This document shows, in pieces, positions 5,860 to 6,189 of a DNA stretch of 64,000 nt. The DNA comes from Escherichia coli (GTDB lineage: Bacteria; Pseudomonadota; Gammaproteobacteria; Enterobacterales; Enterobacteriaceae), in the NCBI RefSeq assembly GCF_003334335.1, contig NZ_QOWQ01000019.1. The stretch is one strand, 5' to 3'. The notes under the pieces were generated by a model. That model saw only the letters and a list, made by a program, of their open reading frames with translations, was not told the DNA's origin and searched no databases. Both the position numbers and the translations under genes were made by a program. How positions within the stretch are numbered: the first letter of the stretch is position 1; each line of letters starts with the position of its first letter.

Positions 5860-6120
5860 AATAAATCCTTCTGGCGAATATAAAGAAAGCCGGATGCACT
5901 AACCCGACCAATTAGTTATTTAAAACATAGAAGACATCCAATATTGCCAGTAGATTATTATCTAATCAAACATACTTTCCTATAATTCACAATTATAATT
6001 CAGGTGAATAAAAAAAGACCATGAAATATATAAATTGTGTATATAATATAAATTACAAATTAAAACCACATTCTCATTATAAATAATTATATGATGAAAA
6101 AACGGTATGAATTAATACTC

Positions 6121-6158
6121 AAATAAATAAAGCAGAGCTTAAACATAACTCTGCTTTA
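6121..6158 (-). terminator. Putative intrinsic terminator downstream of paaY
   Basis: Minus-strand hairpin aagcagag...ctctgctt (6130-6157) followed by a T-rich run, just past the paaY stop at 6190. Confidence 0.45.
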
Positions 6159-6189
6159 TAATTAAAGGGACAAAATAATTTTACATCTG

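Follow-up and report, generated by a model that had tools for sequence, protein, structure and literature searches.

The AT-rich paaY–ydbA spacer of Escherichia coli is probably a nucleoid-protein-coated, promoter-dense silencing region

The 330-nt spacer separating the genes paaY and ydbA of E. coli is best explained as a promoter-dense silencing region that is coated by nucleoid proteins and lies before the accessory gene ydbA. We give this reading a probability of about 0.72. The spacer occupies positions 5860–6189 of the window, i.e., of the whole 64,000-nt stretch of DNA analysed here, and is delimited, with no strand of its own, by its GC statistics, its identity with K-12 and its listing among the K-12 promoter islands. 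It is 100% identical to positions 1465062–1465391 of K-12 MG1655, where the annotation comprises paaY (b1400), the small gene ynbG (b4674, 1465165–1465230), and the pseudogene ydbA (b4492, start at 1465392). RefSeq genomes annotate the same order, paaX–paaY–(21-aa hypothetical)–ydbA. The stretch is therefore the already known E. coli paaY–ydbA intergenic spacer, and nothing in it departs from the published picture. As claimed in the first-pass annotation of this DNA, it lies upstream of an autotransporter gene, since ydbA, a minus-strand gene, has its start at 5859. It should be noted that paaY is encoded on the minus strand as well, and that the spacer therefore also flanks this gene on its 3′ side.

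The GC content of the spacer is 0.252 (25.2%; 74.8% AT), compared with 0.500 for the whole window. All 330-nt segments of the window have a mean GC of 0.500 with a standard deviation of 0.051, which places 5860–6189 about 4.9 standard deviations under the mean. Only 0.02% of these segments are as low, every one of them overlapping the paaY–ydbA locus, and the lowest value in the 64 kb (0.248) belongs to the segment starting at 5853. The earlier description of the region as strongly AT-rich is thus borne out. The AT run quoted in its support, aaattataaattacaaattaaaacc, is not verbatim, however: the actual sequence at 6041–6067 is ATATAATATAAATTACAAATTAAAACC, which is three edits off. The composition is uneven within the spacer. 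In 60-nt segments, the GC content amounts to 0.13–0.20 between 5981 and 6100 and to 0.30–0.38 across the 100 nt adjoining ydbA. We delimited an AT-rich core at 5981–6110 (no strand assigned), with 18.5% GC (81.5% AT) and 60-nt values of 0.13–0.25. The spacer contains 46 TpA steps versus 15 per 330 nt. It also has 18 hexamers resembling the −10 element, the highest count among 1274 tiles, whereas an average 330-nt stretch has 1.9 (sd 2.1). The other low-GC troughs of the 64 kb, at 9928–10335, 20819–21208, 26580–27174, 43715–44084 and 46418–46826, bottom out at 0.31–0.36 over 330 nt. The trough at 9928–10335 lies between the divergent ORFs 7813–9996 (minus strand) and 10281–12326 (plus strand) and is presumably the divergent paa promoter region.

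The occupancy of this sequence by nucleoid proteins is documented in K-12. ChIP-exo of MG1655 (PMC9948719, Table S3) defined an H-NS region at 1464671–1466184 and a StpA region at 1464737–1466175, both of which cover the intergenic 1465062–1465391, as well as a Fis region at 1464953–1465658. Projected onto the window by blastn mapping, the H-NS region extends over 5169–6580 and the StpA region over approximately 5178–6514, while the Fis region maps to 5593–6298 (none with a strand). The H-NS patch is about 1.5 kb long and is centred on the spacer, reaching 0.4 kb into paaY and 0.8 kb (in K-12 coordinates) into ydbA. These data come from K-12 and not from the source strain of the window, and the identity of the DNA that allows the projection is limited to the spacer and its near flanks. 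A second published K-12 patch of H-NS and StpA (1470442–1471760) corresponds to 2446–3690 of the window, inside ydbA, and coincides with much of the sole low-GC part of that gene (41–46% GC in 330-nt segments).

The first-pass annotation had read the region as an H-NS-silenced promoter and had proposed to check this by windowed GC content and by H-NS ChIP data for a reference strain. Both checks agree with the reading: the stretch lies far under the window average, and H-NS binding has been published over the identical K-12 sequence (PMC9948719; PMC3661553). The repression of ydbA would be the expected consequence of this occupancy, and the core at 5981–6110 is the putative nucleation zone of H-NS. 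A search with the high-affinity H-NS 10-mer TCGATAAATT gave one match with two mismatches, at 6027–6036, and no local enrichment, so that nucleation cannot be tied to that motif. This suggests that composition and shape, rather than a motif, might guide the nucleation. In the literature searched, no expression value of ydbA in an hns or stpA mutant was located. Meanwhile, in an rpoZ mutant, the binding of RNA polymerase at ydbA increased and the ydbA transcript was 7.7-fold higher, which fits a normally low level of expression.

The spacer is also a catalogued promoter island, a class described by Shavkunov, Panyukov and Ozoline. Panyukov and Ozoline listed "1463061_385 paaY/ydbA" among 78 promoter islands of K-12, scored it as H-NS-bound from the data of Kahramanoglou and Oshima, and placed it within a GIST-predicted island, with the adjacent gene foreign according to Price et al. 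(PMC3661553). As a class, promoter islands bind RNA polymerase but yield little transcript, with abortive products of 9–14 nt. The listing by the authors of the class and our own hexamer count agree that promoter-like sites are extremely dense here, over a length exceeding the class minimum of 300 bp. It shares with the other members a length above 300 bp, dense promoter-like sites, bound H-NS and an adjoining gene predicted to be foreign. Structurally, nothing sets it apart, but the adjoining ydbA has an average GC content (49%), unlike the genes beside many islands. The supplements of the eLife 2024 study of promoter islands do not mention the paaY/ydbA locus. Genomic SELEX with the RpoS holoenzyme gave an in vitro peak at 1463278 (U00096.2), i.e., at about position 6011 of the window, approximately 152 nt upstream of the ydbA ATG and 10 nt upstream of the ynbG start. 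Our simple sigma-70 scan found three sites where 2.6 were expected and located no ydbA promoter. The Term-seq and Cappable-seq supplements have no entry at the locus, i.e., neither a ydbA or ynbG start site nor a 3′ end.

Taken as a mechanism, the preferred reading would run as follows. The 130-nt core, rich in AT and TpA and crowded with hexamers, would be where H-NS and StpA nucleate, and from there they would spread into both genes, for about 0.4 kb on the paaY side and 0.8 kb on the ydbA side, forming a filament of approximately 1.5 kb. The filament would cover the ydbA promoter or promoters, the 5′ UTR, the tiny antisense ORF ynbG and the promoter-like sites on both strands, where it would hold transcription low and also shut out transposase. 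A hairpin within the spacer would end the transcription of paaY and probably also that of any ynbG transcript arriving from the other side.

The two genes flanking the spacer differ in their condition. The gene paaY, the last of the phenylacetate cluster, occupies 6190–6780 on the minus strand; its product matches TIGR02287 (PaaY) with 377.8 bits, over the cutoff, and the annotations agree. The gene ydbA (193–5859, minus strand) encodes a BigA-like autotransporter adhesin, the C-terminal 800 aa of the product being matched by NCBIfam auto_BigA, and has an overall GC content of 49.1%. It is broken in the window. Compared with K-12 and with an intact allele, 103 bp have been lost after 5587 and a single C has been gained near 5423. 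The intervening 164 nt are out of frame, and because of the early stop codon thus created at 5497–5499, the gene is split into ORFs of 120 aa (5859–5497) and 1756 aa (5463–193). A search of 5426 complete E. coli genomes gave no match with the 103-bp deletion among the 12 best listed; the deletion may be specific to the source strain or may reflect a faulty assembly. The IS2 and IS30 elements that interrupt ydbA in K-12 are missing from the window copy, and its 3′ 3.5 kb (193–3690) are 100% identical to fragment 3 of the K-12 ydbA. By length arithmetic, it seems to be shorter than K-12 by another 294 nt or so in the repeat region, where blast gives overlapping repeat matches. Judged by this alignment, the window gene looks like an uninterrupted precursor of the K-12 pseudogene. 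Intact full-length alleles of 2100–2800 aa exist in other strains; 2018-05-5CC and E13 are examples of strains with an intact gene. The autotransporter had previously been suggested to be normally cryptic, which is true here, but also trivially so, since ydbA is a pseudogene. With the autotransporter dead in this window, any silencing here would have no phenotypic consequence.

A published sigma-54 ChIP-seq site of K-12, IS16, lies nearby and corresponds to TTGGCATGGAAAAAGCA at 6320–6336 on the minus strand, inside paaY. The site faces ydbA, its predicted start being 464 nt upstream of that gene, and a transcript from it would need to cross the paaY hairpin at 6127–6159.

The distribution of the spacer was examined in 5426 complete E. 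coli genomes. It is present in 2436 of them (45%) and absent from the remaining 2990 (55%). Its identity to the window is at least 99% in 1172 of the 2436 carriers and 60–90% in roughly 1000. The spacer follows ydbA, not paaY. In strain AR_0077, both the spacer and ydbA are gone, and the paaY stop codon directly abuts the terminal nucleotides of ydbA. Strains 2022H048, ESM1.4 and MS8345 have lost the paa cluster, but their ydbA retains the spacer to approximately position 6176 of the window. The AR_0077 junction (positions 2470–2505 of its locus, compared with 185–225 and 6186–6195 of the window) reads CGTCCTGATGCTGGACGTTCTAATTTTT after the paaY stop codon. It preserves the last ydbA nucleotides, GTTCTAA, and folds into a hairpin of 7 bp accompanied by a T-run. 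Because this scar keeps the end of ydbA, the absence of ydbA and its spacer looks like a deletion, about 6 kb in size, whose scar apparently gave paaY a new terminator. A 20-mer from the conserved ydbA leader, searched against 100,044 species genomes, had a single match, in a divergent Escherichia labelled E. coli, and at this 20-mer stringency no match outside Escherichia. The divergent genome shows the same layout with 23–30% GC.

Comparison of the alleles showed that the parts of the spacer diverge very unequally. The conserved translation-initiation region of ydbA (5860–5890, minus strand), in which AAGGA precedes the ATG at 5859 by 8 nt, differs by 0–6.5% in all alleles, including that of the divergent Escherichia (L013), and is the sole near-invariant part of the spacer. 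The divergence amounts to 13–32% at 5891–5980, where a few conserved blocks (TTAAAACATAGA, ATATTGCCAGTAGA and AATCAAA) are found, to 30–48% in the core, and to 10–27% around the hairpin. The third codon positions of ydbA diverge by 24–34%, less than the core. In spite of this, alleles with 77–80% identity to the window keep 25–29% GC, and the core has 18–27% GC in all alleles. As the core diverges by 30–48% yet its GC content stays within 18–27%, its sequence appears to be free of constraint while the composition is preserved.

A weak stem-loop followed by a T-run at 5888–5909 (minus strand), 29 nt upstream of the ydbA ATG, was considered as an attenuator. Its folding energy of −9.4 kcal/mol (z −0.35) was no better than that of shuffled sequences and it was missing from the minimum-energy fold of one allele, for which it was downgraded to doubtful. 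The stem is mostly retained in the other alleles, as judged by eye in a set too small for a test. An Rfam scan of 5600–6400 at permissive thresholds yielded no known RNA family, only a chance snoRNA match (E = 0.83).

Terminator scanning and folding revealed a stronger hairpin at 6127–6159, on the minus strand but folding also on the plus strand. It has a 13-bp stem, a 7-nt loop and U-rich tails on both strands, and lies 31 nt past the paaY stop codon and 41 nt past that of ynbG. The folded minus-strand sequence containing it reaches −18.5 kcal/mol (z −3.8) with the tail UUUAUUUAUUU, and the plus-strand sequence −17.1 kcal/mol (z −4.8) with the tail UUUAUAAUUAAA, a poor U-tract. The hairpin energy was compared in five alleles only: with an intact paaY, it is −17.5 kcal/mol in the window, −15.8 in the allele L009 and −17.7 in L013, where stem bases differ, whereas with paaY truncated or absent, it is weakened to −9.6 (L004) and −9.1 (L005, strain 2022H048). 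The element thus combines a GC-containing stem-loop and a U-tract at a gene end with a structure that is kept where paaY is intact. Being strong with paaY and decayed without it, the hairpin fits the role of, and is probably, the paaY terminator. It may also work in the other direction by ending ynbG transcripts, although this direction is uncertain. The hairpin, here predicted from sequence, resembles the shared Rho-independent terminators of convergent genes in its stem, in the tails on both strands and in its placement between paaY and ynbG, and differs from them in the poor U-tract of the plus strand.

Neither this terminator nor ynbG, nor the conserved translation-initiation region of ydbA, nor the occupancy by Fis and StpA, had been mentioned in the earlier annotation. 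The ORF ynbG (b4674; 6021–6086, plus strand) encodes 21 aa, MKYINCVYNINYKLKPHSHYK, appears in our ORF list and in the MG1655 and RefSeq annotations, is antisense to ydbA and paaY, and lies within the AT-rich core. It is reportedly among the small proteins of K-12 found by ribosome-binding-site models and epitope tagging. The ORF of the window is identical to it in sequence, but it occurs in the K-12-like allele alone and is not stable even there. The 21-codon form was found only in that allele; L008 (96% identity) has an 18-codon version starting from an internal ATG, in L009 (93% identity) the ORF is frameshifted, and the start codon is lost in the alleles of 77–80% identity (L004, L005 and L010–L012) and in L013. 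The ORF is thus not conserved among homologous loci, as would be asked of a small-protein gene, and the comparison of alleles indicates that the function of ynbG, if any, is not a conserved one. Genomic SELEX had also assigned a "constitutive" RpoD promoter to ynbG (PMC3946193). The site concerned, CTGACA-17-AATAAC, maps to 4889–4917 on the plus strand and not to the spacer; it is 1.1 kb away from ynbG, antisense within the ydbA coding sequence, and was rejected as a ynbG promoter.

Two independent saturating transposon libraries of K-12 contained zero insertions in ynbG, and in one of the two data sets the insertion density in paaY was low as well. One of the Tn-seq studies described ynbG as "potentially essential", while the other reported that most false-positive essential genes coincide with H-NS and StpA regions, i.e., with occlusion by nucleoid proteins. 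As the spacer is absent from 2990 of the 5426 complete genomes and the ORF is not conserved, the "essential" calls for ynbG are probably occlusion artefacts.

It remains to be considered whether H-NS is what silences the region. In an alternative that we regard as unlikely, the crowding of promoters would do so: the many overlapping sites would tie up RNA polymerase in rival or abortive complexes, so that hardly any complete ydbA or ynbG RNA is produced, and the binding of H-NS would be a by-product of AT-richness. The island is catalogued, it packs 18 hexamers resembling the −10 element into 330 nt, the holoenzyme binds it in vitro, and short abortive products are characteristic of islands as a class; moreover, the promoter-island authors found that mutants of the appY island with altered activity kept their H-NS binding unchanged. 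However, H-NS and StpA span 1.5 kb here, far past the promoter-dense core, and the support for crowding as the cause comes from other islands or from the class. The explanation is also compatible with H-NS silencing rather than exclusive of it, and, in the variant favoured by the promoter-island authors, interference between polymerases may perform part of the silencing.

The remaining two alternatives assign the AT-richness to something other than silencing. The spacer might be ordinary DNA under relaxed constraint, its composition being the sum of a terminator, promoter and UTR sequences and an AT-biased mutation beside a decaying gene, with H-NS occupancy of no regulatory consequence. The divergence of the core, which equals or exceeds that of the synonymous sites in ydbA, would be expected on such terms, as would the pseudogene state of ydbA in K-12 and in this window, the lack of conservation of ynbG and the absence of H-NS motif enrichment. 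We consider this improbable, because a spacer 4.9 standard deviations under the local mean is the most extreme in 64 kb that hold many other intergenic regions, because all alleles share this composition, even the ones whose ydbA is intact with 2100–2800 aa, and because it always travels with ydbA. It is still less probable, to the point of being very unlikely, that the region mainly serves to express the 21-aa ynbG, with the AT-richness arising from the signals and codons of that gene. The gene is indeed annotated in K-12 and RefSeq, the SELEX peak of the RpoS holoenzyme is found some 10 nt before its start, the hairpin follows it on the plus strand, and two Tn-seq studies called it "essential". 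Nevertheless, its ATG is missing in L013 and the 77–80% alleles, L008 has a shortened ORF and L009 a frameshifted one, the gene sits in the fastest-diverging part of the spacer, and a gene that 55% of complete E. coli genomes lack together with the whole spacer cannot be essential. Silencing by an H-NS/StpA filament over a promoter-dense spacer therefore remains our preferred reading.

Xenogeneic silencing by H-NS and StpA keeps adhesin genes of E. coli cryptic, among them cryptic fimbrial and autotransporter loci. The ydbA locus is like these systems in having an AT-rich upstream region that is coated for more than 1 kb, with the coat spreading into coding DNA, and in that ydbA is an accessory surface adhesin gene of variable presence. 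It differs from them in that the body of ydbA is not AT-rich apart from the segment of 41–46% GC, and in that its absence elsewhere is a deletion, not an empty insertion site. The same two points bear on the proposal that the autotransporter gene was horizontally acquired, which can be followed only in part. In its favour, ydbA is accessory, its spacer occurring in 2436 of the 5426 complete genomes, and two predictors flag foreign or island DNA here. Against it, ydbA has 49% GC and is not a typical AT-rich foreign gene, and strains without it carry a deletion scar instead of an empty site.

A further possibility, which we offer tentatively and consider more doubtful than probable, is that selection acts on nothing but the composition of the core, maintaining a "silencer pad" that changes its sequence more quickly than synonymous sites do, yet always has 18–27% GC and always travels with ydbA, and that ynbG is a young ORF which arose de novo within this pad in the K-12-like allele. 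If this were true, promoter islands would be cradles for new small genes, and the "essential" calls for ynbG would be artefacts of occlusion.

Beyond a correct annotation of this stretch as a documented promoter island occupied by H-NS, StpA and Fis, with an annotated small ORF and a terminator, the significance of these results is small. What the analysis adds is modest: the spacer and ydbA are inherited together, composition is retained without sequence, ynbG is restricted to certain alleles, and the terminator has decayed in alleles lacking the paa cluster. For the biology of E. coli, the paaY–ydbA spacer provides a clean example of a conserved composition without a conserved sequence.
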